Shown here piece by piece: positions 3,061-26,365 of a stretch of 32,000 nucleotides of DNA; within the stretch, counting starts at the first letter, position 1; every line of letters begins with the position of its first letter. The DNA comes from Bacilli bacterium (lineage in GTDB: Bacteria; Bacillota_I; Bacilli_A; RF39; UBA660): positions 9,672 through 41,671 of the forward strand of contig JAFUCZ010000024.1 in the NCBI GenBank assembly GCA_017459425.1, in the 5' to 3' direction. Both the position numbers and the translations under genes were made by a program. The notes under the pieces are model-generated. The model was not told the origin of the DNA and ran no database searches. It saw only the letters and a list, made by a program, of their open reading frames with translations.

Positions 3061-3089
3061 TAAAAAAACAATTCTAACTTAGAATTGTT
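3061..3089 (-). terminator. Rho-independent terminator
   Basis: 9-bp stem aacaattct/agaattgtt with a 5-nt loop. On the minus strand it is followed by a T-run of at least 7. It lies immediately after the stop of the small ORF at 3091. Confidence 0.55.
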
Positions 3090-3090
3090 T

Positions 3091-3270: not shown

Positions 3271-3279
3271 AGTTTACTC

Positions 3280-4212
3280 CTATCTATTTTGATATTCATT
3301 ATCTAATTTAATTAATTTTCTAATTAATTCTTTTCTCAAAATTATTTTATCTGTTTTATATATACCGTTTTGTACATTAAATTTAAAAAACTCATTTAAA
3401 AATTTTTCTGTATTTTTATCATTACATAATATTATATTATATCCATTTAATATATCTATGCAATTAATAAAAATAATATCTGTGTTATAATTGTTTTTAA
3501 CTTCATTTAATATTGAATCTATTTGTTTTGTTCTTGATTTAATAAATTCTTCAACATTAGCTATTTCTAAAACTCCTATATTAATATTTTTACCCAATAA
3601 ATTAATTGTATGTTCTATTTCCATAACTTTTCTTAAATTAGAATCTTCAATTTGCGATTTTTTTATAAATATTTCTTTTATTTTTGATTTTGTAATTTCA
3701 CTATATTTGCTTTCTAACCATTTGCATGCATTAATATCTCTAGTATCAGTTACACTAGATTTTAAATTAATGCTATTGGATATAATACCATAATATAACA
3801 AAATTGCGGCTTCTTTTGAAATGTCAATGTTTTCTTTTATAAATCTTTCTGTTACTATTGTTGCAGCTGCACCTATTATATCTATTTGAACTTTTATATG
3901 AGATGGAAAAGTAACTCCATTATATACTGTATGATGGTCTATTATTTCAACTATTTTATTAGTATCATGATTTTTAAAATTATTCAAATCATGGTTATCG
4001 ACTATTACAATTTCGTCTTCTTCATCTATAGTTTTTTTACTATTTAATTTTATATTAAAAATATCGCAAACTATGTTTACTTCTTCTTTAGCATTTCCTA
4101 TTATACAATAACTACTTTTAATTCCGGTTTTATTTAAAAATTCGCTATATGCGTACATGCATGCAATTCCATCTAAATCTGGATTAATATATGATGTAAC
4201 AACACGTGTCAT
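3280..4212 (-). CDS. DHH-family phosphoesterase, family II inorganic pyrophosphatase-like (DHH/DHHA2 size class)
   Basis: 310 aa. Motifs INPDLDGIACMYAY (DHH motif I/II region), VIVDNHD and IIDHH (the DHH signature). The length matches PpaC-type enzymes. Substrate is not determinable by eye. Confidence 0.6.
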   Translation of the reverse strand: MTRVVTSYINPDLDGIACMYAYSEFLNKTGIKSSYCIIGNAKEEVNIVCDIFNIKLNSKKTIDEEDEIVIVDNHDLNNFKNHDTNKIVEIIDHHTVYNGVTFPSHIKVQIDIIGAAATIVTERFIKENIDISKEAAILLYYGIISNSINLKSSVTDTRDINACKWLESKYSEITKSKIKEIFIKKSQIEDSNLRKVMEIEHTINLLGKNINIGVLEIANVEEFIKSRTKQIDSILNEVKNNYNTDIIFINCIDILNGYNIILCNDKNTEKFLNEFFKFNVQNGIYKTDKIILRKELIRKLIKLDNEYQNR

Positions 4213-4317
4213 ATTACACCTCCACTATTTTGATTATAACACATATAATGATGTTTTTGTCTTAAACTATTTAAAAAATAATATTTTTATGATAATATTT
4301 TAGTGGGAGAGATTGAT

Positions 4318-5028
4318 ATGAAAATAATTGAAAAGAAATGTCCAAATTGTGGAGCGGATTTGAAATTTGATATTAAAGATAAAGAAACAAAATGTAGATA
4401 TTGTAAATCTGAATTTATTATTGAAGATAATAATATAGATAAAAATAATATTAACTTAGATGATATTGTTTTAAATAAAAAAATAATAAAAGTTTTTAGT
4501 ATATTTCATTTTTTAATTGCATTTGTAATTTTTGCTATTACTATTGCAATGTTTATAGTCGGGTTTAATCATTTTAAAGATAGTGAAGGTGTAAGTAAGG
4601 AAAAAACTGTTAAAATTAACATCAATGAAATAGATGAAAAAATTGAAAATAAATTAGTTAAAGCATCTATTAATGAAATTAAAAAATGGAACATTATGCA
4701 TAATAATTATGAATTAGATGGCGAATATGAAGAAGCAGGACTTTATTATTTAAAAAATACTTTAAGTGTTAGAATCATTGTTGTTTTAAAATATACTTAT
4801 AAAAATGAATCCGATTCTAAAACTATATATTGTGGAATAAAATATATGGGAAATGATATTAATTCTTTAAATTACACTCCACATTTAAATACAAATCAGG
4901 TTGTATTAGGTGATTTTGACTATGCATATGGATATGAAAGCATAGAAGAATTATATGATGGATTTGTTAGATCAGATAAAAGTTTAGGTTATAAAATTGT
5001 AGCAAGTAAAGATTTATTTATTGATTAA
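4318..5028 (+). CDS. Zinc-ribbon membrane protein, function unknown
   Basis: N-terminal CPNCGADL...CRYCKS (CxxC-x15-CxxC zinc ribbon) followed by one TM helix (VFSIFHFLIAFVIFAITIAMFIV). I prefer the ATG at 4318 with the GGGAGAG RBS at 4305-4311 over the GTG at 4303 in the ORF track. Confidence 0.55.
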   Translation: MKIIEKKCPNCGADLKFDIKDKETKCRYCKSEFIIEDNNIDKNNINLDDIVLNKKIIKVFSIFHFLIAFVIFAITIAMFIVGFNHFKDSEGVSKEKTVKININEIDEKIENKLVKASINEIKKWNIMHNNYELDGEYEEAGLYYLKNTLSVRIIVVLKYTYKNESDSKTIYCGIKYMGNDINSLNYTPHLNTNQVVLGDFDYAYGYESIEELYDGFVRSDKSLGYKIVASKDLFID

Positions 5029-6570: not shown

Positions 6571-7128
6571 ATGTGGATTTATGAAAAAAAATTACAATAT
6601 CCAGTTAATATTAGAAAAAAAGATTTAAAAATGGCAAAATATTTATTATCTCAATATGGGGGACCAGATTCAGAGTTATCTGCTTCACTTAGATATTTAA
6701 ATCAAAGATATACAATGCCAGATGATAAGGGTAAAGCTCTTTTAACAGACATTGGGACTGAAGAATTAGCGCATTTAGAAATAATAGCTACTATGGCATA
6801 TCAACTAATGCAAGGCGCTACAATCGATGAAATTAAAAATGCTGGATTAGGTGGTATGTTTGCACAGCATGATAGTGGATTATTTCCAACTGATGCGATG
6901 GGTGTTCCATTTACAACAGCTTATATTGAAACATCAGGTGATCATATAGCTGATATTGAAAGTGATATGGCTGCAGAGCAAAGAGCTAGAGCTACTTATG
7001 AGCATTTAATGGATTTAACTAATGATCCTGATGTTTTAGCGCCGCTTTCATTTTTAAGACAAAGAGAAGTAGTTCATTATCAAAGATTTAAAGAACTTAG
7101 AAATTATTATTTGGATAATAAAATATAA
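6571..7128 (+). CDS. cotJC: Spore coat protein CotJC (manganese-catalase-like ferritin fold)
   Basis: MWIYEKKLQYPVNI...YGGPDSELSASLRYLNQRYTMP...GTEELAHLEIIATM...EQRARATYEHL are the conserved CotJC/Mn-catalase family blocks. Length is 185 aa. Confidence 0.9.
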   Translation: MWIYEKKLQYPVNIRKKDLKMAKYLLSQYGGPDSELSASLRYLNQRYTMPDDKGKALLTDIGTEELAHLEIIATMAYQLMQGATIDEIKNAGLGGMFAQHDSGLFPTDAMGVPFTTAYIETSGDHIADIESDMAAEQRARATYEHLMDLTNDPDVLAPLSFLRQREVVHYQRFKELRNYYLDNKI

Positions 7129-7147
7129 ATACTTGTTTTCAAGTATT
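7128..7147. terminator. Bidirectional terminator hairpin between cotJC and the XRE gene
   Basis: aatacttg-tttt-caagtatt, followed by a T-run on the plus strand. It overlaps the 3' end of the minus-strand gene. Confidence 0.45.
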
Positions 7148-7342
7148 TTTTTTATAAAATATATCATCTGGTTTCATATCAAAAATGTTTGATATTTTTA
7201 CTGCCATATCGTAAAAGAGTCTTCTTTTTTTGTTTTCTATTTGACTATAATATGCTGGAGTAATGTTTAAAATATGCGCTACTTGAGCGCTTGTTAAATT
7301 GTTTTGTATTCTTATTTTCTTTAAGTTTTCTGTGTTATACAT
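7139..7342 (-). CDS. XRE-family helix-turn-helix transcriptional regulator (67 aa)
   Basis: IRIQNNLTSAQVAHILNITPAYYSQIENKKR is the classic Cro/C1-type HTH pattern. Confidence 0.75.
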   Translation of the reverse strand: MYNTENLKKIRIQNNLTSAQVAHILNITPAYYSQIENKKRRLFYDMAVKISNIFDMKPDDIFYKKNT

Positions 7343-11182: not shown

Positions 11183-12247
11183 ATGTTAAAGCTTAGAAAA
11201 AATTTAAATTTAAAAGAAGTTTATGACTATCCGCTTGATCCTACATATGTTAAGAAATTACTTAAAACATGTGAATTAACTGAAAATGACAAACTATCAA
11301 TATTAGGAGATTCTATGTTTAATACTATGTTTTTAAATAAACATGGATTAAAATACTCAGCTAAACTTTTTTCTTATTTCTTTAGAATTAGATATGAAGC
11401 ACTACTAAAAAAATTAAAATTTTTTAAAAATAATGTAGGTAAAATTAGAAATGGTTCTAGAAACTCTAGATGTGATTTGGTAGCCCAAATTGATGATTCT
11501 ATAATTAATTTAGAAGTAAATAACAACGATTCTGTTTATGTAATGCAAAGAAATATTGATTATGCATTTAGATTATATTCAGAAAGCTCTGTAAAAGTTA
11601 AAGCGGGATATGATTTTTCACAAATAATTCAAATTAATTTAAACAATTTTGCTTTTAAAGATACTAATGAAACTTATGAAATATATACTATCAATAATGG
11701 ATCTAAAATACTTACTTATAAGTTAATTATTATCAATATTTATGTTCCAAACATAATCAAAAAATGGTATAATGAGGGTGTAGAAGCTTTAAGTGAAATG
11801 GAAAGATACATCCTTGGACTTGTAGAAGAAGATACAACTAAAGCTAGTACTTTAGGAAAGGATATTGATATTATGGATGAATTTATTGGTGAAGCACTAT
11901 CGAAAAGTAGAAATGAAAGGCTAAGAAGATCATATGATAAAGAACTAGCCCTTTTAGATCAAGGTGATAGAAACGGATTTAAAAGGGGTATGATGAAAGG
12001 AATGGATAGAGGATTTCAAGAAGGAATTGAAAAGGGAATTGAAAAAGGATTTGAACAAGGTATTGAACAAGGTATTGAACAAGGTATTGAACAAGGTATT
12101 GAACAAGGAATCAAGCAAGGAATTAACCAAAGTAAATTTGAAATAGCACAAAAAATGATTGATAATAATGATAATATTGAATATATTTCATTTATTACTA
12201 ATTTATCAATCGATGATATTAAAAAAATAAAATCTAAAGTTAATTAA
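11183..12247 (+). CDS. Rpn-family / PD-(D/E)xK nuclease family transposase-like protein
   Basis: RCDLVAQIDDSIINLEVNNN fits a D...E-x-(N/K) PD-(D/E)xK core. The C-terminal GxEQG repeat block is followed by IAQKMI...ISFITNLSIDDIKKI, the arrangement typical of the Rpn/YhgA-like family. This is recalled family knowledge and was not searched. Confidence 0.6.
   Translation: MLKLRKNLNLKEVYDYPLDPTYVKKLLKTCELTENDKLSILGDSMFNTMFLNKHGLKYSAKLFSYFFRIRYEALLKKLKFFKNNVGKIRNGSRNSRCDLVAQIDDSIINLEVNNNDSVYVMQRNIDYAFRLYSESSVKVKAGYDFSQIIQINLNNFAFKDTNETYEIYTINNGSKILTYKLIIINIYVPNIIKKWYNEGVEALSEMERYILGLVEEDTTKASTLGKDIDIMDEFIGEALSKSRNERLRRSYDKELALLDQGDRNGFKRGMMKGMDRGFQEGIEKGIEKGFEQGIEQGIEQGIEQGIEQGIKQGINQSKFEIAQKMIDNNDNIEYISFITNLSIDDIKKIKSKVN
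12023..12130 (+). repeat. In-frame 12-nt tandem repeat (nine units, four perfect) encoding (G-I/F-E/K/N-Q/K)n
   Basis: Perfect ggtattgaacaa occurs four times at 12059-12106. It is flanked by degenerate units ggaattgaaaag, ggaattgaaaaa, ggatttgaacaa, ggaatcaagcaa and ggaattaaccaa. Confidence 0.9.
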
Positions 12248-14194: not shown

Positions 14195-16870
14195 TTATTT
14201 TTTTATAATTTCATTTAGTTTTTTGATTATTATTTCTTTTTCTCTTGAACCATTTGTTTTAAATCTAAGTAGTGGAATATCACACTTTTTTAAAATATTA
14301 TTTTTTATTTGGTCTCTTATTATTTGTTTCTTTTTATTATGAAAAAAATATCCATCTACTTCTATTGCAAGTACAGGCTTTTTATCAAATTTATTAAATA
14401 TTAGAAAATCTATATGTGAATTATGATTAATAAATTCAATTTCTCTTTCATTTAAAATAGTTTTATCTTTAACTATTTTTCTTAATGGATATACTTTATC
14501 TAAAACATCATATGTACTATATTCATCCATTTGTAGTATTTCTTTTATAGTATTATACATAATAGTTTCTGAATCAAATTTAGAAAAAATAGTATGTGCT
14601 TTTAAATATTGTTTTTTAGTATCTTCATTTACTTTGTATAGTAAATCAAATATTGAGTTTATTTTACTTTCTACTTCTTCAAATTTATTATATTTAATAT
14701 AACTTATTAAATTAGAAATATTAGAATTATTACTTGATTTATATTCATCTGGTGTAACTAAAAATAGTTTATTAATAGCTCTAGATACTGCTACATTAAT
14801 AGAATTAGGATTATCTAAAAATTTTGTTATATTGTTTGCTACTGTAGAAAAAATAATAGTATCTTTTTCTCTTCCTTGAAATCCATGAACTGTATCTATA
14901 GATACATTTGGGCAATTAATTTCACCTATTAGATAATTTTTTTGGGCTTTATATGGAGTTATAATTCCTACCCGATCTTTATTTATATCTATTTTTTCAT
15001 TTGGTATTAGTTCATCTATTATAATTTCTGCTTGTCTTAAATTATACCAACTATTATCTCTTTTTCTAGCGTGATTACCTTTTACTGATTTATATTGTTT
15101 AATTGGCTCATTATTATTACTTTCTGATAGTATTATTAATTCATTATTATAGAATTTTTTATTACAAAAATTTATTATTTTAGGATGACATCTATAATGT
15201 TCTCTTAAAATGACTATATTATTAACTGTTTTTTTAGTTAAATCAAGTAAACTATTTTTAGTGTAATTAAATTTTTCTTCTATATCATATTTATTAAATA
15301 TTTCATTAAAATCTATATTTTTATCAACTATGTTAGGTAGTTGCTTAGAATCTCCTACTATTATTACGTTTTTAGCCATGCTAAGTGCAGCAAATGAAGA
15401 TACTAGATCTGCTTGAGAAGATTCATCTATAATCATGTAATCAAACATAAAAGATTTATTAACACAATTTATTAATGAATATGTAGTACTAAGTATTACA
15501 GGGTAATCTTTTATTAATTCTTGTGTATTATAAATTGTTTTTTTATCATATATTTTTTTATTATTATAATTTTTATATACATAATCTTTAAATAATTTCA
15601 TAGAAATATCTGTATATGTTTTAAATAATTTTTCATAATTTAAATTCTTTATATAATCTTTTTTTTCTTGTACTTGTGTTTCTAATTCTTTTATTCTTTT
15701 TTCGTAATATGAATATTCTAAATAATTTAAAATATCTACTATTTTATTACTAGTATCAATTTTATATTTTATTTTTGATTTAATTTGTATTAATTTACTA
15801 AAATATTCTTTTTTGTTTTTTTGTTTATTTAAAAACATTAAAACTTCATGTAATTTTTTTGAATCATAATCAGGTAAATTAATTACTTTTATATTAGATA
15901 TATCAATACTTTTTTTAAAATAATTATATTCTGTTTTTAATTCATCTAATTCTTGATTTGCTGCAGCTATTTCATTTTTTATATTTAAATATGAATCTAT
16001 ATCACTATTCATTATATTTAAATTATTTTTTATTTTATTTATTTCTTCGTCATTTAATTTCCAATTATCAGGATATAATTCATTAGATTGATTATTAATA
16101 AAATCTTTAATATTACTAGATTTACCTAATTTCGCACATATAGAAGATAAAGATTGTTTTTTTAATTTTTCATATACGTTATCAGTGGCACTATTATTAT
16201 TAGATATAACAGCTACACTATAATTTGAAATAATACAATTAGATATTATATTTAAAATTGTTTGTGTTTTACCTGTACCAGGTTGTCCTTCTATTGCACT
16301 AACATAATTATTAAGTGCATTATTTAATGCTTTTTTTTGACTTAAATTAAAACTAAATGGAAATATATTAGTATCTATTTTAGTGCCTTTATCTTTAATA
16401 CCATTAACATAATACTTAATGACTGAATCTTCATTTATAAATTTTAATTTATCATATATCTTACTTAATACACTATTATCTTCATTATTTGATATATCTT
16501 TAATAGTTAAATAACTTGATATTTCATTTAAATAATTATAAACATTTCTTACATTTATATTAGATAGCAAATTACTTTTAATTGTAACTTCAGAATTATT
16601 ATATAATTTAGTAGTATTATTACTAAAAAATACTTTTATATAATTATCAAACTTTAATATTTTTTCTACATTAATTAAAGTATTATATGAAGTTGATATT
16701 ATAGAATCTTTTATGATTATAGGATATTCTTTTATTATTAAATTAGATTTATTATATGTATATATTTTATCACTATAATTAACACTTACTAAATTATCAT
16801 TAATATCAACTACATTTTTAGTTATATCTTTATCATTATTTATTACTAATATCTTTTCTTCATTTAACAT
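14195..16870 (-). CDS. Superfamily 1 (Upf1/DNA2-like, AAA_11/AAA_12-type) helicase with a C-terminal DUF2726-like PD-(D/E)xK nuclease-fold domain
   Basis: Walker A GQPGTGKTQT, motif II MIIDESSQ, then VGDSKQLPN, LREHYRCHPKIINF, TVHGFQGREKD and NVAVSRA (motif VI). The C-terminal HIDFLIFNKFDKKPVLAIEVDGYFFH...RDQIKNNILKKCDIPLLRF resembles the DUF2726/Vsr-like endonuclease fold. It is on the same strand as the DGR RT and 54 nt downstream of it. Confidence 0.85.
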   Translation of the reverse strand: MLNEEKILVINNDKDITKNVVDINDNLVSVNYSDKIYTYNKSNLIIKEYPIIIKDSIISTSYNTLINVEKILKFDNYIKVFFSNNTTKLYNNSEVTIKSNLLSNINVRNVYNYLNEISSYLTIKDISNNEDNSVLSKIYDKLKFINEDSVIKYYVNGIKDKGTKIDTNIFPFSFNLSQKKALNNALNNYVSAIEGQPGTGKTQTILNIISNCIISNYSVAVISNNNSATDNVYEKLKKQSLSSICAKLGKSSNIKDFINNQSNELYPDNWKLNDEEINKIKNNLNIMNSDIDSYLNIKNEIAAANQELDELKTEYNYFKKSIDISNIKVINLPDYDSKKLHEVLMFLNKQKNKKEYFSKLIQIKSKIKYKIDTSNKIVDILNYLEYSYYEKRIKELETQVQEKKDYIKNLNYEKLFKTYTDISMKLFKDYVYKNYNNKKIYDKKTIYNTQELIKDYPVILSTTYSLINCVNKSFMFDYMIIDESSQADLVSSFAALSMAKNVIIVGDSKQLPNIVDKNIDFNEIFNKYDIEEKFNYTKNSLLDLTKKTVNNIVILREHYRCHPKIINFCNKKFYNNELIILSESNNNEPIKQYKSVKGNHARKRDNSWYNLRQAEIIIDELIPNEKIDINKDRVGIITPYKAQKNYLIGEINCPNVSIDTVHGFQGREKDTIIFSTVANNITKFLDNPNSINVAVSRAINKLFLVTPDEYKSSNNSNISNLISYIKYNKFEEVESKINSIFDLLYKVNEDTKKQYLKAHTIFSKFDSETIMYNTIKEILQMDEYSTYDVLDKVYPLRKIVKDKTILNEREIEFINHNSHIDFLIFNKFDKKPVLAIEVDGYFFHNKKKQIIRDQIKNNILKKCDIPLLRFKTNGSREKEIIIKKLNEIIKK

Positions 16871-16874
16871 AAAA

Positions 16875-16893
16875 ATACCTCATTCAGAGGTAT
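16875..16893 (-). promoter_or_regulatory. Hairpin overlapping the helicase Shine-Dalgarno sequence (terminator-like or SD-sequestering)
   Basis: The minus strand reads ATACCTC-TGAAT-GAGGTAT followed by TTTTT and ATG. The GAGGT RBS is the 3' arm of the stem. The same hairpin is conserved in the relic at 13488-13507. Confidence 0.35.
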
Positions 16894-16924
16894 TATATCA
16901 TCATTTTTATTATATTTAAAGATA

Positions 16925-17992
16925 TTATAAATAACTATCTATAATTTTTTCTATTTTTTTCTTATTACATCTATATGAATAATAATAATTCATCATAGAT
17001 GAAAAATATGTTTCAAATTTTAATTTTTCATTTTTGTATAAATATATTTTCTTTTTTACATTTTTCTTCATATTCTTAACAGAACTTCTTTTAACAATCA
17101 TTATTGTTTTTTTATTTTGTATAAAAAATTTATAACCTAGAAATGTAAAACCATATTTAGAACTCGTAATAAATGTTTTATTTATACTTATATCCAATTT
17201 ATATTCATTATTTAGTTTATTAATTATTATTTCTTTGCATTTTTTTAAATATAATAAATCATCACTAAAAATTAAAAAATCATCCATATACCTTACATAG
17301 TGTTTTAATTTTAATGTATGAATTATATAGTGATCTAGTCTGGATAAATAATATATTGACAAGCATTGACTACTTAAATTACCAATTGGTAAGCCTTTGC
17401 CGTATTCATATAAAGGTACTTTTAAATTTTTATTATTTTTAAGGATTTTTTTTATATTTGAATTTATATAATCATAATTAGTACTATCAATTATTTTACA
17501 TACAAAATTATATTCACAATCACTTAAATCTGTTTTTAACATTGCCTTTAATATGTCATGATCTATCCTATAAAAATACTTACTTATATCTATTTTTAAA
17601 ACATAAAATATTTTATTTTTTCTTTTATAAAACTCTATATATTTTTTTACTAAATTTATGGCATAATCGGTACCTTTGCCTATACGTGTAGCAACATTTC
17701 TATCATCTAATTTTTTTTCTAATTTAGGTATTAGATAATTAGTAGTATAATAATGATTTATTATTTTGTCGTTAATACTTAATGACATAATAAGCCTAGG
17801 TTTTGGTTCATATATTAAAAAAATATTGTATTTATGAATAAGTGGCTCTATACCATTTAATACATCAACAATATATTTTAAATGCTCTGATTTATGCATT
17901 TCCAAATTAATTAATTTATTTTTATTTTTTACTGTCTTTTTTAATGTTTGTTCATAAAATTCAAGTACATCACGTATTGTTATTTTTTTCAT
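16925..17992 (-). CDS. Diversity-generating retroelement reverse transcriptase
   Basis: RT motifs are present: the motif 4 region LPIGNLSSQCLSIYYL (the (I/L)GxxxSQ signature that distinguishes DGR RTs), motif 5 YVRYMDDFLIFS (YxDD), and FTFLGYKF. The 355-aa size is typical of DGR RTs. It overlaps the avd-like gene by 23 nt, and the TR and VRs lie nearby. Confidence 0.9.
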   Translation of the reverse strand: MKKITIRDVLEFYEQTLKKTVKNKNKLINLEMHKSEHLKYIVDVLNGIEPLIHKYNIFLIYEPKPRLIMSLSINDKIINHYYTTNYLIPKLEKKLDDRNVATRIGKGTDYAINLVKKYIEFYKRKNKIFYVLKIDISKYFYRIDHDILKAMLKTDLSDCEYNFVCKIIDSTNYDYINSNIKKILKNNKNLKVPLYEYGKGLPIGNLSSQCLSIYYLSRLDHYIIHTLKLKHYVRYMDDFLIFSDDLLYLKKCKEIIINKLNNEYKLDISINKTFITSSKYGFTFLGYKFFIQNKKTIMIVKRSSVKNMKKNVKKKIYLYKNEKLKFETYFSSMMNYYYSYRCNKKKIEKIIDSYL

Positions 17993-18335
17993 ATACTATC
18001 CAACCCCTAACTTTTTTATTTAAATCTAATAAAAGTGCGGTTTTTTCATGAAAAATAGATTCAGTAATATATCCCTTTTTATATGATTCTTCAAGTAATA
18101 AATCAATCATACTAATTTTTGATAAAATTTTACTTTGATTTAAAATACGAATATCTTTAAATTTATTAAGTGGTATATAATTAGATTCATAAATAAGTTC
18201 TATTATCTCATAGGTTAATGTTTTTATTTTATCTTTAAGTATTATTTCCCTATTTGGAAATCTACATAAAATAGTATCTATTTCAAACAGGAATGTTTTA
18301 GCAATTACAATTATTTTAAACTTATTTTCTTTCAT
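17970..18335 (-). CDS. avd: Avd-like accessory variability determinant (four-helix-bundle protein)
   Basis: 121 aa and predicted all-helical. FPNREIILKDKIKTLTYEIIELIYESN and IDLLLEESYKKGYITESIFHEKTALLLDLNKKVRGWI fit the four-helix-bundle / 23S rRNA IVS protein family pattern. It is translationally coupled to the RT. Confidence 0.75.
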   Translation of the reverse strand: MKENKFKIIVIAKTFLFEIDTILCRFPNREIILKDKIKTLTYEIIELIYESNYIPLNKFKDIRILNQSKILSKISMIDLLLEESYKKGYITESIFHEKTALLLDLNKKVRGWIVYEKNNNT

Positions 18336-18672
18336 TTAAAAAATTATCTATTACATCAATTAAATCATTTAATTGATTAAAATTTGCTTTCATTATTTTT
18401 TCTTGTATTTGATTAATTTTTAAATCAAGAATTAATTTGTTTTTTGATTCTATTAAATAATTACTGTAATTATCGTCTTCAAAATGTTTTATTTCATCAT
18501 TTAATTTATAATCAATATGTAATTCGTCTAATTTTGATTTAACCTTGTCAATACTACTTAGTGGAAAACCAACTCTACTATCTTTTAGTTTATAATTAAA
18601 TAAATTATGTAATATTGTTGCGTCATCATCAAATACTGAATAAAAATTACCTGCTTTTCTAAAAACTATCAT
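18322..18672 (-). CDS. Small MutS domain-I-like DGR accessory protein (MSL-type)
   Basis: MIVFRKAGNFYSVFDDDATILHNLFNYKLKDSRVGFPLSSIDKVKSKLDELHIDYKL aligns by eye with the MutS mismatch-binding N-terminus (LLFYRMGDFYELFYDDA...L...LT.R...PMAGIP......YL.KL...G..V). It overlaps avd by 14 nt. Confidence 0.55.
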   Translation of the reverse strand: MIVFRKAGNFYSVFDDDATILHNLFNYKLKDSRVGFPLSSIDKVKSKLDELHIDYKLNDEIKHFEDDNYSNYLIESKNKLILDLKINQIQEKIMKANFNQLNDLIDVIDNFLNERK

Positions 18673-18896
18673 TAATAAACCTCACTTCATAAATATTAGT
18701 AAGGAGTAAATAACTCCTTACCATTACAACATACTACATTTTTACAAGATTATAGAATCGGTACGTATACCTATCGTCTTGTACTATCTTTAGGGTTACC
18801 CCTAGGACATGTGCTGTCTCCTACAATTATCATATTATTTGCGAGAAAATAATACCCGAATAAATATTTGACTACATTGTAAACTGAAATTGTAGC
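18673..18896 (-). ncRNA. Non-coding spacer 3' of the TR, probably part of the DGR RNA (Sp-like region)
   Basis: There is no ORF, and it is locally richer in G+C than its surroundings. Minus-strand hairpins are TAGGG-GTAA-CCCTA (18791-18804, GNRA-type loop), GGTA-TACG-TACC (18760-18771, UNCG-type loop) and gtaaggagt-tatt-tactccttac (18699-18721). Confidence 0.4.
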
Positions 18897-19010
18897 AGTC
18901 TACAGGGCGGACAGAACCGGCATTTAACGCATTGTTGTTATTGACGTTTCCTGTAGAGTTCACATTGAACACATTATTGGAATTTGAAGAATTCGCACGA
19001 GGCGAAAGGG
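18897..19010 (-). repeat. DGR template repeat (TR), 114 nt
   Basis: It is homologous to 19520-19633 and 21317-21430. All mismatches are at plus-strand T, which is A on the minus (coding/template) strand. In the target reading frame it is loaded with AAY Asn codons (...ANSSNSNNVFNVNSTGNVNNNNALNAGSVRPV). The 60-aa ORF at 18835-19017 in the track is this element, not a gene. Confidence 0.92.
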
Positions 19011-19040
19011 AAAACAAAAGCCAAAACTCAGAAAACTATC

Positions 19041-19355
19041 TTACCCTAACACACCTGCCCTAATTCTATCTAATATATCTATAACTATAAACTTATATAC
19101 GTACTCAGTATATCTATTTATATTGTTTTCATATGTTTTATCTATATTTAAATTATCTACTATAATATAATTAATACTTAATTTTTGAAATTTTTTTAAT
19201 ACTACAGTAATATCATCATTATATTTTTTAATATAATTTAAAATAATTTTATCTATACCAAAACATTTATACCCAAATTTATTTTTACTAGTTTTAAATA
19301 GCAATACATAATTAGGATATATTTTTTTTAAAAACCAATATCTATTATTGTACAT
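19041..19355 (-). CDS. Hypothetical small protein between the DGR targets and the TR, possibly a second MutS-domain-I-like accessory
   Basis: 104 aa. YWFLKKIYPNYVLLFKTSKNKFGYKCFGIDKIILNYI loosely parallels the MutS N-terminus (YL.LK...P..LLFYR.GDFYE.F..DA......L), and SINYIIVDNL parallels the VAI.EQ region. The similarity is weak and seen by eye only. Confidence 0.4.
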   Translation of the reverse strand: MYNNRYWFLKKIYPNYVLLFKTSKNKFGYKCFGIDKIILNYIKKYNDDITVVLKKFQKLSINYIIVDNLNIDKTYENNINRYTEYVYKFIVIDILDRIRAGVLG

Positions 19356-19386: not shown

Positions 19387-19414
19387 CGTCCAGTCTTGAA
19401 TACAAGACCGGACG
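19387..19414 (-). promoter_or_regulatory. 12-bp hairpin downstream of DGR target 2
   Basis: The minus strand reads cgtccggtcttg-tatt-caagactggacg. All 12 positions pair on the minus strand, one of them as G-U. The plus-strand version has an A-C mismatch, so the structure is strand-specific. A second 6-bp hairpin (gtagaa/ttctac) follows at 19369-19386. No T-run follows either hairpin. Confidence 0.4.
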
Positions 19415-19442: not shown

Positions 19443-20840
19443 TTATTCTGTGTAATTTAGAACAAATGGTTTTGATTGTGTTCCATCACCAGAGGTGATT
19501 GTAACACCTGATTTTAAGTAGACTACAGGGCGGACAGAACCGGCATCCAACGCATGGTCGCCAGTGACGTAGCCTGTAGAGCGCACAATGAACACAATAT
19601 AGGAATAAGAAGAAGTCGCACGAGGCGAAAGGGTCCATGTCCACATACTTGTATTTAATAACCAATCATTATTCTTACAGTCTGTATATGTATTTTGCCA
19701 ATTTGGTATACTTGAATCTGATACGTATCCTACAGTATATGATAAACATGCATCTCTATCATGTGTACTTCCACCACTTGTCGCATATGCATAATCACTT
19801 GGATATATTAGTCCTACTTTACCTGTCCAACGCGTTGTTCTATTTACTGTATCACTACAATGTGTTGCATTTGAACATTGCTTACCTGTACTACTTGATC
19901 GCTCCCAACTATATAGTAGTGACGCTGTTATTCTTCCATCCCAGATATTTGCACTTGGTGTATCTAATGAGCCTAAGTACCATGTTGCATTATCTATCAT
20001 ATTTTTACTTGCTGTATCGCTCAATCCTGTATTTGTAAAATCACAGTTTGCTGTATTATAATTTCCATATGTATAACATTTGCCACTTTCTGCATTCCAA
20101 TACAAACTATTATTTACTTCGATTGTATCATAATTTGACGCGCTGTTATCTCCACAGTTAACTATTGAATTTGCTGAATCTAAAGTTGAACCTGCAATAC
20201 ATCTTAAATCTTCGTTCTCTTCATATCCTGGATTTAATAATTTCATTAAATCTGCTCCATCATAATCAGTTCCATCAGTTAGTGTTGATTCACCCCATTG
20301 GTTTACACCATATCCTCTATTAACATCTACCGCTGATGTATCAAATGAATAATTTCCAATTGGGCTTTGAACAAGTTTTAGTCTTCCATCAAATACTCCT
20401 ATTATTCTCCATACTTGATCATTAAATCTTACATAGTTATCTGGATTACTTCCTATAAACCTTAATTCATTTTCGTGATCTGTTGTTGATATTCCCTCAC
20501 CCTCTGTATTTAATGCTTTTATATATGATTCTGGTGTTTTCGGATTTGTACAACTATATTCACCATTTGTTCCATTAATTCTTACATATCCGCTAGGACA
20601 ACCTACATTAACTTCACAGAATGTTGCTTTTGTATATAATTCATCTAATGCAGTTTGTACATCTTCTACATCATTTCCACTCGAATCTTTAAAGCCGGAA
20701 GAGCTATTATCATATCCAACGTTATCACTTTGGTAAAGAATCGTAGCACCATAGACAGTTGTACTTGCTACAATTATTCCAATTATTATTCCATAAAATA
20801 ATTTTTTGTTATTATTAATATTATTTATTATTTTCTTCAT
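19443..20840 (-). CDS. DGR target protein 2: membrane-anchored/secreted protein with a C-terminal variable-region domain
   Basis: N-terminal hydrophobic anchor (LFYGIIIGIIVASTTVYG). VR1 encodes ...WTLSPRATSSYSYIVFIVRSTGYVTGDHALDAGSVRPVVYL about 25 residues from the C-terminus. The W.L(R)SP...G.VRP(A/V) module resembles C-type-lectin-fold/DUF6273-like ligand-binding domains used by DGR targets. An AGGAGGAAATAATT-ATG RBS follows 12 nt after the stop of target 1. Confidence 0.85.
   Translation of the reverse strand: MKKIINNINNNKKLFYGIIIGIIVASTTVYGATILYQSDNVGYDNSSSGFKDSSGNDVEDVQTALDELYTKATFCEVNVGCPSGYVRINGTNGEYSCTNPKTPESYIKALNTEGEGISTTDHENELRFIGSNPDNYVRFNDQVWRIIGVFDGRLKLVQSPIGNYSFDTSAVDVNRGYGVNQWGESTLTDGTDYDGADLMKLLNPGYEENEDLRCIAGSTLDSANSIVNCGDNSASNYDTIEVNNSLYWNAESGKCYTYGNYNTANCDFTNTGLSDTASKNMIDNATWYLGSLDTPSANIWDGRITASLLYSWERSSSTGKQCSNATHCSDTVNRTTRWTGKVGLIYPSDYAYATSGGSTHDRDACLSYTVGYVSDSSIPNWQNTYTDCKNNDWLLNTSMWTWTLSPRATSSYSYIVFIVRSTGYVTGDHALDAGSVRPVVYLKSGVTITSGDGTQSKPFVLNYTE
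19457..20534 (-). repeat. Copy A of the ~1.08-kb duplicated VR-bearing module
   Basis: Collinear with 21254-22334 at an offset of 1797-1800 nt, with one 3-nt indel. The encoded proteins are roughly 95 percent identical outside the VR by eye. Confidence 0.9.
19520..19633 (-). repeat. DGR variable repeat VR1
   Basis: I count 17 differences from the TR across 18901-19010, plus one at 18899. All are at TR adenines on the coding strand. The flanking invariant blocks are ccctttcgcctcgtgcg (5') and ccggttctgtccgccctgtag (3'). Confidence 0.92.
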
Positions 20841-20852: not shown

Positions 20853-23800
20853 CTAATTTAGCATCTCGTACAACTTGTCTATCATACATTGTACATTACT
20901 ACATCCAAGTGTACTATTAATATGTTCTATATTTTCTGCCATTACTCTTGTCCATTTAGCATATAATACTCCACTGTTATCTGTAAAAATAGTAGCAGAC
21001 ACTTGTGAAGACAATTTACCACTAGAATCAATTACTTTGGTTCCAGTTCCATTCTTGCCTGTATAATATCCACCAAATGCATATCCTTTTTTTGTTGGTA
21101 TTGTTATTCCATTACTACTTGTTGTAATTTGTGTAGTAGCTTCACTATTTAAATAATATCCTGTATTATATTTTTCATATATACTTGTTGTTCCTGTTGT
21201 AGTAGCATTTCTATTATCTAATTTTACTGAATATGTATCTGATGTTGGATCAGTTAAAACAAATGGTTTTGATTGTGTTCCATCACCAGAGGTGATTGTA
21301 ACACCTGATTTTAAGTAGACTACAGGGCGGACAGAACCGGCAAAGAACGCATCGGTGCTAATGACGTATCCTGTAGAGTGCACATAGAACACACTATTGG
21401 AATCTGAAGAAATCGCACGAGGCGAAAGGGTCCATGTCCACACGCCTGTATTTAATAACCAATCATTATTCTTACAGTCTGTATATGTATTTTGCCAATT
21501 TGGTATACTTGAATCTGATACATATCCTACAGTATATGATAAACATGCATCTCTATCATGTGTACTTCCTCCACTTGTTGCATATGCATAATCACTTGGA
21601 TATATTAGTCCTACTTTTCCTGTCCAACGCGTTGTTCTATTTACTGTATCACTACAATGTGCATTATTTTGTGTACATTGCTTACCTGTACTACTTGATC
21701 GCTCCCAACTATATAGTAGTGACGCTGTTACTCTTCCATCCCAGATATTTGCACTTGGTGTATCTAATGAGCCTAAGTACCATGTTGCATTATCTATCAT
21801 ATTTTTACTTGCTGTATCGCTCAATCCTGTATTTGTAAAATCACAGTTTGCTGTATTATAGTTTCCATATGTATAACATTTGCCACTTCCTGCATTCCAA
21901 TACAAACTATTATTTACTGAAACTGTATCATAATTTGACGCACTGTTATCTCCGCAGTTAACTATTGAATTTGTACTATCTAAAGTTGAACCTGCAATAC
22001 ATCTTAAATCTTGATTACTCTCATATCCTGGATTTAATAATTTCATTAAATCTGCTCCATCATAATCAGTTCCATCAGTTAGTGTTGATTCACCCCATTG
22101 GTTTACACCATACCCTTTATTTACATCTACCGCTGATGTATCAAATGAGTAACTACCTATTGGACTTTGAACAAGTTTTAATCTTCCATCAAATACTCCT
22201 ATTATTCTCCATATTTGATTATTAAATCTTACATAGTTATCTGGATTACTTCCTATAAATCTTAATTCATTTTCGTGATCTGTTGTTGATATTCCCTCAC
22301 CCTCTGTATTTAATATTTTAATTACAGATTCAGGATCGTTACCAACATATGTCCAATTTGCAGTATAACTTCTATTACCTGTTGAACCTGTAGGTATAGT
22401 TACATTTTTGCTTGGAGTATTTCCATTAGACCCAGTCCATCCATCAAATAAATAACCTGTTTTTTTTGGATTATTTAATGTGATTGCACTGCTTTCTTTT
22501 GTGTAACTTGTTGGATTTGTAGCACTTCCACCATTTAATGTGTATTCAATTGTATATGATATTGGTTCACATACTCCATATAACGCTACATCCGTTATTG
22601 GTGTTATTGTTTCGCCACTTGTATGTTGAATAGTTGTACCATTTTCATTTGCTGTCCATCCACAAGTATATCCTGTTTTTTCTATTGTTGGAAGTGTTAT
22701 ATTTCCACTACCACTAAATCTAGCAAATAAAGTAATATCTTCATCATGTATCCAATTTGATTCTTCATCTGTATATTCGTTTATACTTGGAGTTAATACT
22801 GGTTTATTTGTATTATCTAGCATTAGATCTCCACCATTTTGTAATGTATACCAACCATTAAATGAATATGAAGTAGTTAAGTTTTCATTACTACTTACTG
22901 TAGCGCCATTTGATTTTCTTGAATTTGATAATTCAAATCCACTTACTGTGTATTCTTTTTGTGGTACTACTATTTCTTCTGGATTAATATCTGCTGCATC
23001 GTATGTTACTTCAACACTAGCAGTTGGGTTATTTGTTGCTCCATTTTTATTTAAAGTAATAGTATAGGTATTTGCTATCCAATGTGCTGTTATAGTTTCT
23101 GATTTTTTAGCTAAAGTTTCAGGAGTAACCTTTACATCATTTGACGTATACCAGCCATCAAATGTGTATCCAGTTTTACTAACTGTAGGTAATTCACCAT
23201 AAGAAGTATTATATTCTATTCTTTTTGTAATTACTTCTTCTCCATTATTAGGATCAAATGTTATAGTGTAAATATCTGTTGTGTATATTGCATATAGTGT
23301 ATAAATTGGATATTCATTTAAATCTACTGTTAATTTATCTCCTTTACGATATTTAATTCTTGTACCATTTTGTTCATCTGTCCAACCACTAAATGTATAT
23401 CCTTCTTTTACTGGTTCTTCTAGTACGTTATTAACTAAGTTTAAAGTTAAATCTTCACCCTCATATTTTATTTGATCTGTTACACTGCTTCCGCCATTTT
23501 CTTGATAAGTAATATAGTATACTTTTCTAAAATCAAATACATTTGTTACATTTATTGTAGATGTACTTGGATTTGTTGTAGTATAAGTTACATATAAATC
23601 TAGTGTAGATTTTTTTTCAATTACATCTTTGAAATTAAATATAGTACCATTTGCATATTTTATAGTTGTAATTAATCCATTATCGTTTGAAGTTGTAGTC
23701 ATGTTATATATAGTTTGATCGAAATCACCATTGTTTGCAATAGTTACTTTATATGTTATAGATGAATTACTATTAGGTAAAACAAACCCACTAGTTATTT

Positions 23801-24005
23801 TATCAACATTATATTCGCTTTCATATTTTATTTCTGCACCATTTAATGTACTACCACTTAAAACTATTCCATCTACTCTAATATCAGATATAGGTCTGAT
23901 TTTTACTTCTGATGTGATAGACAAAGAAGTAGAAAGTGCTGAATATGCTACTGTTGTAAGCATTACAAAAATAACGCTTAAAAAAATCATAATTTTCTTC
24001 TGCAT
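20853..24005 (-). CDS. DGR target protein 1: large secreted surface protein with Listeria-Bacteroides (Flg_new-type) repeats and an internal variable-region domain
   Basis: Signal/anchor MQKKIMIFLSVIFVMLTTVAYSAL. There are at least six G(Y)xFxGW(Y/T)...G repeat units (GYTFSGWTDEQNGT, GYTFDGWYTSND, SFNGWYTLQNGG, GYTCGWTANENGT, GYLFDGWTGSNGN, GYAFGGYYTGKNGTG). The VR2-encoded segment is WTLSPRAISSDSNSVFYVHSTGYVISTDAFFAGSVRPVVYL. Confidence 0.85.
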   Translation of the reverse strand: MQKKIMIFLSVIFVMLTTVAYSALSTSLSITSEVKIRPISDIRVDGIVLSGSTLNGAEIKYESEYNVDKITSGFVLPNSNSSITYKVTIANNGDFDQTIYNMTTTSNDNGLITTIKYANGTIFNFKDVIEKKSTLDLYVTYTTTNPSTSTINVTNVFDFRKVYYITYQENGGSSVTDQIKYEGEDLTLNLVNNVLEEPVKEGYTFSGWTDEQNGTRIKYRKGDKLTVDLNEYPIYTLYAIYTTDIYTITFDPNNGEEVITKRIEYNTSYGELPTVSKTGYTFDGWYTSNDVKVTPETLAKKSETITAHWIANTYTITLNKNGATNNPTASVEVTYDAADINPEEIVVPQKEYTVSGFELSNSRKSNGATVSSNENLTTSYSFNGWYTLQNGGDLMLDNTNKPVLTPSINEYTDEESNWIHDEDITLFARFSGSGNITLPTIEKTGYTCGWTANENGTTIQHTSGETITPITDVALYGVCEPISYTIEYTLNGGSATNPTSYTKESSAITLNNPKKTGYLFDGWTGSNGNTPSKNVTIPTGSTGNRSYTANWTYVGNDPESVIKILNTEGEGISTTDHENELRFIGSNPDNYVRFNNQIWRIIGVFDGRLKLVQSPIGSYSFDTSAVDVNKGYGVNQWGESTLTDGTDYDGADLMKLLNPGYESNQDLRCIAGSTLDSTNSIVNCGDNSASNYDTVSVNNSLYWNAGSGKCYTYGNYNTANCDFTNTGLSDTASKNMIDNATWYLGSLDTPSANIWDGRVTASLLYSWERSSSTGKQCTQNNAHCSDTVNRTTRWTGKVGLIYPSDYAYATSGGSTHDRDACLSYTVGYVSDSSIPNWQNTYTDCKNNDWLLNTGVWTWTLSPRAISSDSNSVFYVHSTGYVISTDAFFAGSVRPVVYLKSGVTITSGDGTQSKPFVLTDPTSDTYSVKLDNRNATTTGTTSIYEKYNTGYYLNSEATTQITTSSNGITIPTKKGYAFGGYYTGKNGTGTKVIDSSGKLSSQVSATIFTDNSGVLYAKWTRVMAENIEHINSTLGCSNVQCMIDKLYEMLN
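21254..22334 (-). repeat. Copy B of the ~1.08-kb duplicated VR-bearing module
   Basis: See copy A. It includes VR2 and the identical downstream block ...ggtgattgtaacacctgattttaagtagac. Confidence 0.9.
21317..21430 (-). repeat. DGR variable repeat VR2 (internal to target 1)
   Basis: I count 13 differences from the TR across 18901-19010, plus one at 18899. All are at TR adenines. VR1 and VR2 differ from each other at many of the same positions. Confidence 0.92.
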
Positions 24006-24229: not shown

Positions 24230-25228
24230 TTAATCCATTTCTTTTCTAGTTACTTTATATTCATAATTTTGAGTATCCATAATTACAAATTTAGATTCAT
24301 TTTCATTTACTTTTACATAAATTATAGGTTTTTCTAAATTATTTCTTACATCCAATAATTCTTTAAAACTATTAATAGATACAACAGGTGCATTACTATC
24401 AATAAATGAATTATTAGATTCTGTAATATATGAATCATTTTCTCTTAAAAGTTTTTTAATATATCTTTCATATTTACTTTCTTTACTAAGTCTACTTTTA
24501 ATTTTAAGTGCTAGTATTACTAGAGAAACAAAACCTAAAGCAGCAAGCATAATAGATATACCAAACATTACTTTATTAAGTGGTGATTCACTTGTTCTTA
24601 AAGAGTATGGTTCATTACTAGAAATATCAGAGCTTTTAGAAATATTAATCATTTGTCTAGAAAGAGGTATTTCTACAGTCATTTTCTTACTACCTACTAT
24701 ATCGTTTTCTTTACTCTCATACATTAAATCATAATCGATAACTAAATTACAATTAGCGCTTATTCCATAATCACTTTTAAATTTATTTGCTAAATTATTA
24801 TATTTAGTATAATCAATTTTTATTTGATCAGATACATCTATATTTTCACTAGTATTAGCATCTTGTTTTAATATATCATTTTCAGAATAAATTACTTTAT
24901 CGTTATTTTCTGTATCAACTATTTTTATATCAGCAACAATTTTTTTATTTATATCAAAAGTATCTTTAATGTCATAAGTTGCCTTATAATTGAAATTTAA
25001 ATCAATATAATCTACTATACTAGAAATATATTGCATTCCTTCATCTAAATAATCCCTATTGTAATAAGTTTTATCATTTAAATATACTTTGTATTTAACC
25101 CCACCATTTTCTTTAAAATCAACCACTGTTGATATTTGTTGCTTTGATTGCATAAAGAAATAAAAACTTAATATTCCTAATATTACTGTCAAAACAACCA
25201 TTGCCAACTCGCTTTTACTCTTTTCCAT
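24230..25228 (-). CDS. Bitopic membrane protein associated with the SipW-type peptidase (possibly DUF5305-like)
   Basis: 332 aa with an N-terminal TM helix (LAMVVLTVILGILSFYFFM), an extracytoplasmic segment of about 200 aa, a second TM helix (VMFGISIMLAALGFVSLVILAL) and a cytoplasmic tail. It lies 12 nt downstream of the signal peptidase gene. The family assignment is recollection only. Confidence 0.5.
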   Translation of the reverse strand: MEKSKSELAMVVLTVILGILSFYFFMQSKQQISTVVDFKENGGVKYKVYLNDKTYYNRDYLDEGMQYISSIVDYIDLNFNYKATYDIKDTFDINKKIVADIKIVDTENNDKVIYSENDILKQDANTSENIDVSDQIKIDYTKYNNLANKFKSDYGISANCNLVIDYDLMYESKENDIVGSKKMTVEIPLSRQMINISKSSDISSNEPYSLRTSESPLNKVMFGISIMLAALGFVSLVILALKIKSRLSKESKYERYIKKLLRENDSYITESNNSFIDSNAPVVSINSFKELLDVRNNLEKPIIYVKVNENESKFVIMDTQNYEYKVTRKEMD

Positions 25229-25240
25229 TTTTATCCTCCT

Positions 25241-26365
25241 TTAAAACATTTCATTTAACCAAATACTTGGCAAACCTACTTTATCAACGATAAATATTAC
25301 TTTTCCAAGAACATCATCGTCCCCAACAACACCAGCATCTACCTGGTCATTGTTATCACCTTTTGTAGAATAAAATCTATAATTTTGTCTTTCATACACT
25401 TTATAAATTCTATGTGATATCAATTTATTTTCATGTCTGAATACAATTATGTCGCCAACTTCTAATTTGGATTTTTCAGTATCACGTAGTTTTTTTAGAA
25501 TTACAACATCACCTTTTTCAAAAGTACCTAACATTGAATTAGATCCAATAACTAAAGATTGATATTTAAAAAAGCCTGAATTTAAACCCACTAAAGAAAG
25601 TAATACAACTAAACAAATACCAAAAACAATGTTATTTCTGTGTCTGTTTTTTGGTTTTTCAAGTTTTTTCATTCTATTATTAAGTAACATAAAAGAAATA
25701 AATGTTGGTAATACTATCATAAATACTGATGAAACATAAGTACCCATATTAGGTACAAATGGAACAATATAAATATACAATTCCATTATTAATCTATAAA
25801 TAATTCCATTATAAAAATCACTCTTCATTGCAAATATTGTCATCAGTACATTTCTACTAATTCCATCTATTACTACAATTGCTATAAATTTATATAATTG
25901 TTCTTTATCAGCTAAATTATAATTAGTGAATCCAATACTAATATCTAGCATTACAAACACTAAAAAACTCATAAAAATAACTAATTTATTGTTATCTGAT
26001 TTTTTGATAAATTGATATCTTAAAACTTCACTTGCGATTATAACTGTCGATACCGGAATAATGTTTTTAACAAAGTTTACTACCGACCAAGAATAAATTG
26101 TACGTGCGAATGAAATAAAAAGACCAAGTAAGTAAATAAATAAGAAATAAATAATTAAATAAATGAGTAAACTTTTTAAAATTTCTTTATGATTCGAAGG
26201 TTTTTTTATATCTATTCCTATAGCAAAATAAACTATAGCAAAAGATACACATAAAAAGATAAGATATTTATCATGAGTGAACAATGCAGGTTGCAAGAAG
26301 CTTATCAATATTACTACAAGCATTAATATTTCAATAATTAATAACTTTTTTACCCCACTTTTCAT
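25241..26365 (-). CDS. sipW: SipW-like (archaeal/ER-type) signal peptidase I fused to a large polytopic N-terminal membrane domain
   Basis: The C-terminal ~120 aa (GSNSMLGTFEKGDVVIL...VGDIIVF...ISHRIYKV...STKGDNNDQVD) parallel B. subtilis SipW blocks (SGSMEP.F.TGD / VGDVITF / THRI / TKGDNN...D). The first ~250 aa are multiple hydrophobic helices that ordinary SipW lacks. Confidence 0.75.
   Translation of the reverse strand: MKSGVKKLLIIEILMLVVILISFLQPALFTHDKYLIFLCVSFAIVYFAIGIDIKKPSNHKEILKSLLIYLIIYFLFIYLLGLFISFARTIYSWSVVNFVKNIIPVSTVIIASEVLRYQFIKKSDNNKLVIFMSFLVFVMLDISIGFTNYNLADKEQLYKFIAIVVIDGISRNVLMTIFAMKSDFYNGIIYRLIMELYIYIVPFVPNMGTYVSSVFMIVLPTFISFMLLNNRMKKLEKPKNRHRNNIVFGICLVVLLSLVGLNSGFFKYQSLVIGSNSMLGTFEKGDVVILKKLRDTEKSKLEVGDIIVFRHENKLISHRIYKVYERQNYRFYSTKGDNNDQVDAGVVGDDDVLGKVIFIVDKVGLPSIWLNEMF

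Follow-up and report, generated by a model that had tools for sequence, protein, structure and literature searches.

MutS-like (MSL) genes were defined by Wu et al. (2018, Nucleic Acids Res 46:11; PMC5758913) as accessory genes of diversity-generating retroelements (DGRs), in 16 of 372 of which they were found. The published MSL proteins are 112-283 aa long with an isoelectric point (pI) of 7.2 ± 1.7, and they always occur together with avd (accessory variability determinant) and never with HRDC, a combination designated 'Architecture D'; no function was assigned to them (PMC5758913). Msl is also present in three Bacteroides DGRs (Bfr, Bth and Bun; bioRxiv 10.1101/2024.11.15.621889), and the class is listed in a review (PMC8632793). 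MSL has thus stood as a DGR accessory class since 2018 without an assigned mechanism, and meanwhile host mismatch repair has been found to cut Bacteroides DGR retrohoming, which rose 5-10 fold, in an all-or-nothing pattern, upon knockout of the host mutS (bioRxiv 10.1101/2024.11.15.621889). Mismatch-repair suppression was built into one E. coli reconstitution of a DGR, and in a second mutS was deleted in the substitution reporter in the expectation that DGR-introduced substitutions would be preserved. Here we describe a DGR that carries a very probable MSL gene, ORF116, and a second small gene, ORF104, that is probably a diverged paralogue of it. The element lies in a 32,000-nt stretch of DNA from a Bacilli bacterium (GTDB lineage RF39; UBA660; GenBank assembly GCA_017459425.1, contig JAFUCZ010000024.1, forward-strand positions 9,672 to 41,671), which is called the window throughout and from whose first nucleotide all window coordinates are counted. 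A first-pass annotation of the window had noted that some catalogued DGRs carry MSL genes whose mechanism is not known, and both primary sources bear this out (PMC5758913; bioRxiv 10.1101/2024.11.15.621889).

An MSL-type DGR

On the minus strand, the order of elements in the window is target gene 2 with variable repeat 2 (VR2), target gene 1 with VR1, ORF104, template repeat (TR), spacer, ORF116, avd and the DGR reverse transcriptase (RT). Both open reading frames (ORFs) of interest were found on this strand where the first-pass annotation had placed them, ORF116 at 18322-18672 and ORF104 at 19041-19355, with the translations that it had quoted. The RT (16925-17992, minus strand, 355 aa) matched Pfam RVT_1 at E = 3.8e-18 and has orthologues in all related cassettes, while avd (17970-18335, minus strand, 121 aa, pI 9.2) matched PHROG 3206, 'Avd protein of DGR', at E = 3e-5, and its equivalents in related loci carry PF22296 (bAvd). 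The start of avd overlaps the stop of ORF116 by 14 nt, and avd and RT overlap by 23 nt. The TR (18894-19010, minus strand; 117 nt, 31 adenines) belongs to a three-copy repeat family and aligns with both VR1 and VR2; it lies 30 nt downstream of the ORF104 stop and upstream of ORF116, from whose start it is separated by 222 nt of non-coding DNA. Across the 117-nt alignment, 18 of 19 differences from VR1 and 14 of 15 differences from VR2 fell at TR adenines, an A-specificity that is the DGR hallmark and the signature of activity.

Zero HRDC matches were obtained among the cassette ORFs scanned with Pfam. Relatives were absent from the phage GenBank collection (tblastn) and from IMG/VR viral contigs, and the neighbours of the DGR in the window are the housekeeping genes MreB, BipA and SpoIID, so that the element looks chromosomal rather than phage-borne; a search of GTDB genome contigs returned a single metagenome-assembled genome, already among the relatives. 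The assignment of this element as a chromosomal, MSL-bearing DGR ('Architecture D' in the scheme of Wu et al.) is well supported.

ORF116 as a MutS domain I mini-protein

The first-pass annotation had read ORF116 (116 aa, pI 5.6) as MutS domain I without an ATPase, and this reading held at the level of the protein, its family and its predicted fold. Pfam MutS_I (PF01624) matched ORF116 at E = 6.6e-4 (20.3 bits; residues 1-32 on profile positions 17-48 of 113). Neither ORF116 nor ORF104 gave any Pfam match to MutS_II, III, IV or V, and with 116 aa ORF116 has no room for an ATPase or any other MutS domain. Eleven close homologues (64-100% identity) were collected, and an exhaustive profile search recovered 640 MSL-family cluster representatives at E ≤ 1e-3; essentially all of the 150 matches listed from these 640 were ~110-150 aa long and mostly matched full-length. 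Among 80 diverse relatives, 58 matched MutS_I at E ≤ 0.01 (best E = 2.1e-11), and no other Pfam family recurred in this set. Relatives of ORF116 range from 106 to 169 aa, and many are already annotated with PF01624. When the PDB sequences were searched with a profile of 20 long-form MSL members, the 18 best were MSH6/MutS (human MSH6, E = 6.7e-4); the same search with the close-family profile or with the 80-member profile did not match MutS, and PHROGs returned nothing for ORF116 or ORF104.

Monomer models of both proteins were computed with AlphaFold (AF2). The ORF116 model had a mean predicted local distance difference test score (pLDDT) of 79, rising to ~90 over residues 1-60, and its top 50 Foldseek matches in the PDB were all MutS/MSH proteins with a probability of about 1.0 (0.97-1.00). 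It superposed on the E. coli MutS and MSH6 hits with a root-mean-square deviation of 1.0-1.5 Å over 55-67 residues at 21-25% identity. Residues 1-62 form the core of MutS domain I, with the G8-x-F10-Y11 hairpin and G35-F36-P37, and are followed in the model by a poorly defined linker and a helical hairpin (residues 79-115) that takes the place of the rest of the domain.

In MutS, Phe36 stacks on the mismatched base and Glu38 contributes to discrimination and repair authorisation. F10 of ORF116 aligns with E. coli MutS Phe36 and the Glu38 position is occupied by Ser12; in BLASTP, GNFYSVF of ORF116 paired with GDFYEMF of a canonical MutS encoded at one of the related loci (L012, below). The Phe-x-Glu motif, which the first-pass annotation had suggested checking in ORF116, is therefore half retained, and the family shows the same pattern: among the 80 relatives the wedge Phe was present in 79 and the Gly-Phe-Pro (GFP) motif in 78, and the Glu of Phe-x-Glu was found in 10.

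One point weighs against this assignment, namely that the MutS_I score of ORF116 is 0.3 bits under the gathering threshold of 20.6 bits; ORF104, as described below, did not match PF01624 at all. ORF116 nevertheless shows the features of the MSL class (a small stand-alone protein with MutS homology in a DGR cassette with avd and without HRDC), to which we assign it by the class description and not by alignment with the 16 published MSL sequences. We are highly confident in placing ORF116 among the MSL proteins, as an addition to an already described class.

ORF104, a probable basic paralogue

ORF104 (104 aa, pI 9.6) has nine homologues (58-99% identity), and its resemblance to the MSL family emerged from profile comparisons. 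With hhalign, the match probability of the close ORF104 family was 67% against the close MSL family (E = 5e-5, 64 columns), 95.6% against the 80 MSL members (E = 1.2e-8, 81 columns) and 95.7% against the long-form MSL set (E = 1e-8, 79 columns); that of an extended ORF104 alignment was 96.7% against the long-form set (E = 4.7e-10, 83 columns). In the other direction, hmmsearch with an MSL profile against ~1000 ORFs found ORF104-like ORFs at E-values from 5e-7 to 2e-3. The matched blocks are landmark motifs of the MSL family: the N-terminal helix, Y-x-x-F/Y, D-x-x-I, the INY strand and N-x-Y. The N-terminus of ORF104 (RYWFLKKIYPNY) pairs with the N-terminal helix of long-form MSL proteins and of MutS, and after a deletion of 15-20 residues containing the GFP strand the INY strand and the N-x-Y motif match again. 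Throughout the ORF104-like family an invariant Lys occupies the position of the wedge Phe, and the family is strongly basic (pI 9.6 ± 0.2, compared with 7.8 ± 1.6 for MSL).

A rival reading holds that ORF104 is unrelated to MutS or MSL, being a small basic nucleic-acid-binding DGR accessory whose profile match is a false positive of AT-rich, K/N/I/Y-rich composition. Several observations lean that way and against kinship with MutS: ORF104 has no Pfam match, and Pfam scans of four ORF104-like proteins likewise gave nothing; PHROGs and a PDB sequence search with the ORF104-family profile were empty; the AF2 model is of low confidence (pLDDT 68), with MutSbeta at the head of an otherwise noisy Foldseek list (probability 0.93, E = 0.28); the deleted segment is one that is conserved in MSL; and the link from ORF104 to MutS runs only through the MSL family. 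The composition argument, however, did not survive its controls. The real ORF104/MSL alignment scored 48.6, as against 11.9 ± 2.0 for 100 column shuffles (maximum 18.7) and 9.2 for the reversed alignment (z of about 18), and since shuffled and reversed scores lie so far below the real one, a shared AT-rich composition is excluded as the cause of the match. The agreement of two different MSL alignments over 79-83 columns, the recovery of ORF104-like ORFs by the MSL profile, the coincidence of the matched blocks with the MSL landmarks and the identity of the top Foldseek match as a MutS homologue also count against an unrelated origin, which we regard as improbable. On the strength of these profile alignments, ORF104 is likely to be a diverged, strongly basic MSL paralogue ('MSL2').

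The description of ORF104 as a weaker version of the MutS pattern is probably right as far as family membership is concerned and failed in its wording: with Lys at the wedge position and the GFP strand deleted, ORF104 is not simply a weaker MSL copy. The proposed structural similarity to the MutS N-terminal domain was similarly divided, being clear for ORF116 and confined for ORF104 to the single MutSbeta match.

The MSL/ORF104-like pair in related loci

The survey covered the neighbourhoods of MSL relatives down to about 25-40% identity, together with a metagenome scan for the ORF104 motif; loci (numbered with the prefix L) were scanned with hidden Markov models for MSL, ORF104-like, RT and avd genes, and TR and VR were located by repeat search. 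MSL lay immediately 5' of avd-RT and overlapped avd in 10/13 independent looked-up loci plus the window, and did so in every locus of the DGR type. The ORF104-like ORF stood beside a DGR RT in all 10 independent loci that have one (the window, L001, L004, L007/L008, L009, L010, L012, L013, L017 and L018), nine of which also showed MSL and avd, the exception being L017, which is truncated within the RT. Expressed the other way, 9/10 independent MSL-type cassettes carried the ORF104-like gene, and the survey gave no instance of it away from a DGR, so that the co-occurrence that the first-pass annotation had proposed to look for is now documented. The tenth cassette, L011 (target - MSL - avd - TR - RT), has no ORF104-like gene, and the pair is therefore not obligatory.

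The position of the ORF104-like gene varied. The order target - ORF104-like - TR - MSL - avd - RT was found in the window, L001, L004 and L018 (40% identity; TR not mapped in L018). In L007/L008, of the 'Mycoplasma sp. CAG:611' type, the order was target - TR - MSL - avd - RT - ORF104-like; in L009 and L010, target - MSL - avd - RT - TR - ORF104-like; in L012 and L013 (TR not mapped), MSL - avd - RT - ORF104-like; and in L017, whose contig starts inside the RT, RT - ORF104-like. The gene may thus precede the TR, follow the TR or follow the RT. The bracketing of the TR by two MutS-like genes, to which the first-pass annotation had drawn attention, is real in the window, and because the position varies it is a trait of the window clade and L018, not of the whole system. 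The conserved feature is the presence of the MSL/ORF104-like pair in the cassette, not the bracketing.

No description of a second, diverged paralogue in one cassette was found in the literature searched. The ORF104-like gene might correspond to one of the 'PAG1-4' candidates, which Wu et al. left without names (PMC5758913). The recurrent paralogue thus appears to be unreported, and ORF116 itself is an ordinary MSL member.

Among the window, L001 and L004, the ratio of nonsynonymous to synonymous substitution rates (dN/dS) was 0.21-0.44 for ORF116 and 0.42-0.46 for ORF104, and avd fell in the same range (0.2-0.46). ORF116 and ORF104 are conserved and under purifying selection, like avd. For ORF104, whose lack of conservation in related genomes the first-pass annotation had named as a possible objection, this selection is accompanied by the nine homologues and by occurrence in all 10 independent cassettes. 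These data also bear on the reading in which ORF116 is a decaying mutS fragment, or either ORF a chance frame in AT-rich DNA, and neither is functional. That ORF116 represents part of domain I only, with a Pfam score just below threshold, and that the ORF104-like gene of L009 is split over two frames would fit such decay. Set against it are hundreds of length-conserved ORF116 relatives, the fixed synteny of MSL overlapping avd, the dN/dS values, reading frames that stay open down to about 30-40% identity, and a GAGG ribosome-binding site 9-12 nt before the ORF116 ATG. On family size, synteny and dN/dS we reject a pseudogene or chance-frame origin, to which we attach hardly any probability.

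Further observations were made at the surveyed loci. In L009 the ORF104-like gene (6958-7282) extends over two overlapping frames; the cause could be a frameshift or an error of sequencing, or the copy could be decaying. More distant mini-proteins of the MutS_I type (106-169 aa), with no RT nearby, were encoded at L014 (5001-5321), where the neighbour is a Lon protease, at L015 (5001-5510), where it is a NUDIX hydrolase, and at L016 (5001-5498), where it is an AIPR abortive-infection protein; MutS domain I thus occurs as a stand-alone protein outside DGRs as well. In L012 a canonical full-length mutS (2432-4981, minus strand; Pfam domains I, III, IV and V) is convergent to the MSL-type DGR and lies 54 nt after the ORF104-like gene. 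This adjacency may be a coincidence, and the gene shows that mismatch repair, the pathway to be evaded in the mechanism considered next, exists in this host group.

Possible roles in retrohoming

The constraints on any mechanism are a conserved wedge Phe, the loss of the Glu and of the repair-signalling domains, expression coupled with Avd and RT, and the frequent presence of a basic, Phe-less partner. The first-pass annotation had suggested that the A-mismatched cDNA:VR heteroduplex might be recognised by such proteins, or be protected by them from the host's mismatch repair. The mechanism that we favour, tentatively and by analogy with MutS, is that an ATPase-less heteroduplex-binding module shields the cDNA:VR duplex from host mismatch repair. 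MSL would be made together with Avd and RT by way of the overlapping stop and start codons and, alone or with its basic paralogue, would bind the densely mismatched heteroduplex of adenine-mutagenised cDNA and VR. Having no ATPase or MutL-licensing domains, MSL could not start repair; the bound module would instead occlude host MutS, so that the all-or-nothing reversion by mismatch repair would be avoided and the yield of retrohoming would go up. The MSL/ORF104-like pair would in this scheme parallel the asymmetric MutS dimer or MSH6/MSH2, with a single Phe-inserting subunit. The fuller form of the analogy, in which ORF116 and ORF104 make up an ATPase-less heterodimer that copies the asymmetric MutS or MSH6/MSH2 clamp, combining a Phe wedge with a basic backbone-binding surface in an anti-repair device, seems to us rather doubtful.

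Three considerations weigh against a heteroduplex-shielding role. In full-length MutS, DNA is gripped by domains I and IV of a dimer, and what is found here is an isolated domain I core. ORF116 is acidic, which would be unusual in a protein that binds DNA by itself and would suit a protein-protein role as well. Finally, mutS was not required for Bordetella phage retrohoming (PMC5758913).

The acidity of ORF116 is in keeping with the main rival, in which the RT-Avd-RNA particle includes MSL, and possibly ORF104, as a structural subunit that acts during cDNA synthesis and not afterwards, for example by holding a mispaired RNA:cDNA duplex or primer terminus for RT extension past A:N mismatches, or by handing the cDNA to the target. 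The stop/start overlaps of MSL, avd and RT were kept in every cassette, which suggests coupled translation and a fixed stoichiometry; acidic ORF116 (pI 5.6) is encoded beside basic Avd (9.2) and ORF104 (9.6); in most cases the ORF104-like gene lies right beside the TR or the RT; and the wedge Phe is kept while the Glu of discrimination and licensing varies. These features would all suit a particle subunit. Charge pairing, however, is not general, since the pI of the MSL family is near neutral (7.8 ± 1.6), and MSL is not needed for the core chemistry, since the Bordetella phage DGR and most of the 372 DGRs mutagenise adenines with RT and Avd alone (PMC5758913). We give the particle-subunit role a limited chance of being correct. 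The explanation as a whole, in which ORF116 is an MSL protein, ORF104 its paralogue and the role of the pair lies with the DGR heteroduplex, we hold with moderate confidence.

The locus sharpens the question of what MSL does. It points to a large, length-conserved family in which the wedge Phe is kept and the repair-licensing Glu is not, whose genes lie directly before and overlap avd-RT, and which in this lineage is usually joined by a second, basic, Phe-less paralogue. It overturns nothing, and it provides a two-component handle on an accessory function unexplained since 2018. Should the pair prove to be a DGR-encoded mini-clamp, it would constitute a dedicated mismatch-repair evasion module, and engineered systems for DGR mutagenesis could be equipped with a natural anti-mismatch-repair module of this kind. 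If the paralogue is unrelated, or if the proteins are only particle subunits, the result adds modestly to the known parts of DGRs.

Non-coding elements and neighbouring genes

Over the ~170 nt that follow the TR, the window, L001 and L004 hardly differ, although they share only 52-68% identity in the flanking proteins. This conserved non-coding spacer (18724-18893, minus strand) folds better than shuffled sequences (RNA fold z = -2.9) and matched no Rfam family; it is probably a structured 3' part of the DGR RNA. In the interval between the spacer and the ORF116 ribosome-binding site, a terminator scan identified a terminator-like hairpin (18697-18723, minus strand; 11 bp), which is kept in L001 and L004, where the sequence differs but the pairing is maintained by compensatory changes and, in L004, a T run follows. 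The hairpin may mark the end of the TR RNA, or it may attenuate the expression of MSL, avd and RT. A second terminator-like site follows the RT (16874-16894). Because terminator-like sites stand after both the spacer and the RT, the likely transcription units are ORF104-TR-spacer and MSL-avd-RT. A further 12-bp GC-rich hairpin is located past the stop of target 1 and ahead of the start of ORF104 (19387-19414, minus strand; DNA fold z = -6.2). A hairpin of different sequence is found at this site in L001 and L004 also, and is followed in those two loci by a conserved AAAGGATTCTAC box; the element could be a DGR target-recognition hairpin or a T-less terminator.

Target gene 1 (19443-20840, minus strand, 465 aa) carries VR1 at 19517-19633, and target gene 2 (20853-24005, minus strand, 1050 aa), which contains Flg_new repeats, carries VR2 at 21314-21430, with ~150 further codons after it. 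Target 1 duplicates the C-terminal part of target 2 at 93-97% identity (19457-20171 versus 21254-21971), from which it follows that one TR serves two recently duplicated VR-bearing genes. Upstream of the Flg_new-repeat targets, a signal peptidase S26/S24-like gene was found in the window (24230-26365, minus strand, where DUF5305 is also present) and in L001 (2456-2890), and its position suggests that a dedicated peptidase processes the diversified targets, which would be secreted or surface proteins.

Immediately beyond the terminator of the RT is a gene for an 891-aa superfamily 1 helicase (14195-16870, minus strand; AAA_11/AAA_12) with a C-terminal DUF2726 nuclease-like domain. It was considered as a part of the cassette and rejected, being absent from related DGR loci, and is probably outside the DGR. 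PDDEXK_2 (Rpn/transposase-like nuclease) genes occur a few kb from the DGR in three independent loci, namely the window (11183-12247, plus strand), L007 (7198-8193) and L011 (948-1829). L001 (28-933) and L004 (500-1585) each have a tyrosine integrase gene 3-5 kb upstream of the targets, and none was seen in the window; in some genomes an integrative element may carry the cassette.

Comparison with known systems

The closest structural reference for ORF116 is domain I of MutS/MSH proteins (PF01624; E. coli MutS, 1e3m; human MSH6, 2o8b), with which residues 1-62 share the fold, the G-x-F-Y hairpin with its wedge Phe, and the D-D-A and G-F/I-P motifs. ORF116 differs from this domain in lacking the N-terminal helix (the equivalent of MutS 'QQYLxxK') and the C-terminal third with its strands, and in having acquired a helical hairpin. 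It differs from MutS/MSH proteins as a whole in that the connector, core and clamp domains (II-IV) and the ABC ATPase domain V are absent and that Phe-x-Glu has become F10-Y11-S12, with Ser12 in place of Glu38. It is thus not a canonical MutS, and its architecture is unable to license MutL or to act as a sliding clamp.

In MSH6/MSH2 and in the MutS homodimer, only one subunit inserts Phe-x-Glu. The pair described here would resemble such asymmetric dimers in having one partner with the wedge Phe (ORF116) and one without it (the ORF104-like protein, with its invariant Lys), of the same domain origin and usually encoded together; the parallel with MSH6/MSH2 is one of analogy only, and, unlike MutS dimers, both mini-proteins are without the dimerisation domains.

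Avd is a four-helix bundle pentamer. Like Avd (PF22296), the ORF104-like proteins are small, have a strongly basic pI of about 9.6 and occur in DGR cassettes only. They are unlike it in that ORF104 is predicted to be alpha/beta and shows no sequence or predicted-fold similarity to Avd, and every cassette has a separate avd gene.

ORF116 agrees most closely with the MSL class of Wu et al. (2018): it is small, is related to MutS through the mismatch-recognition domain only, and is encoded in an avd cassette without HRDC. The pI of its family (7.8 ± 1.6) and that of the published proteins are both near neutral. Among its relatives, many of which retain the N-terminal helix, ORF116 represents a minimal form.

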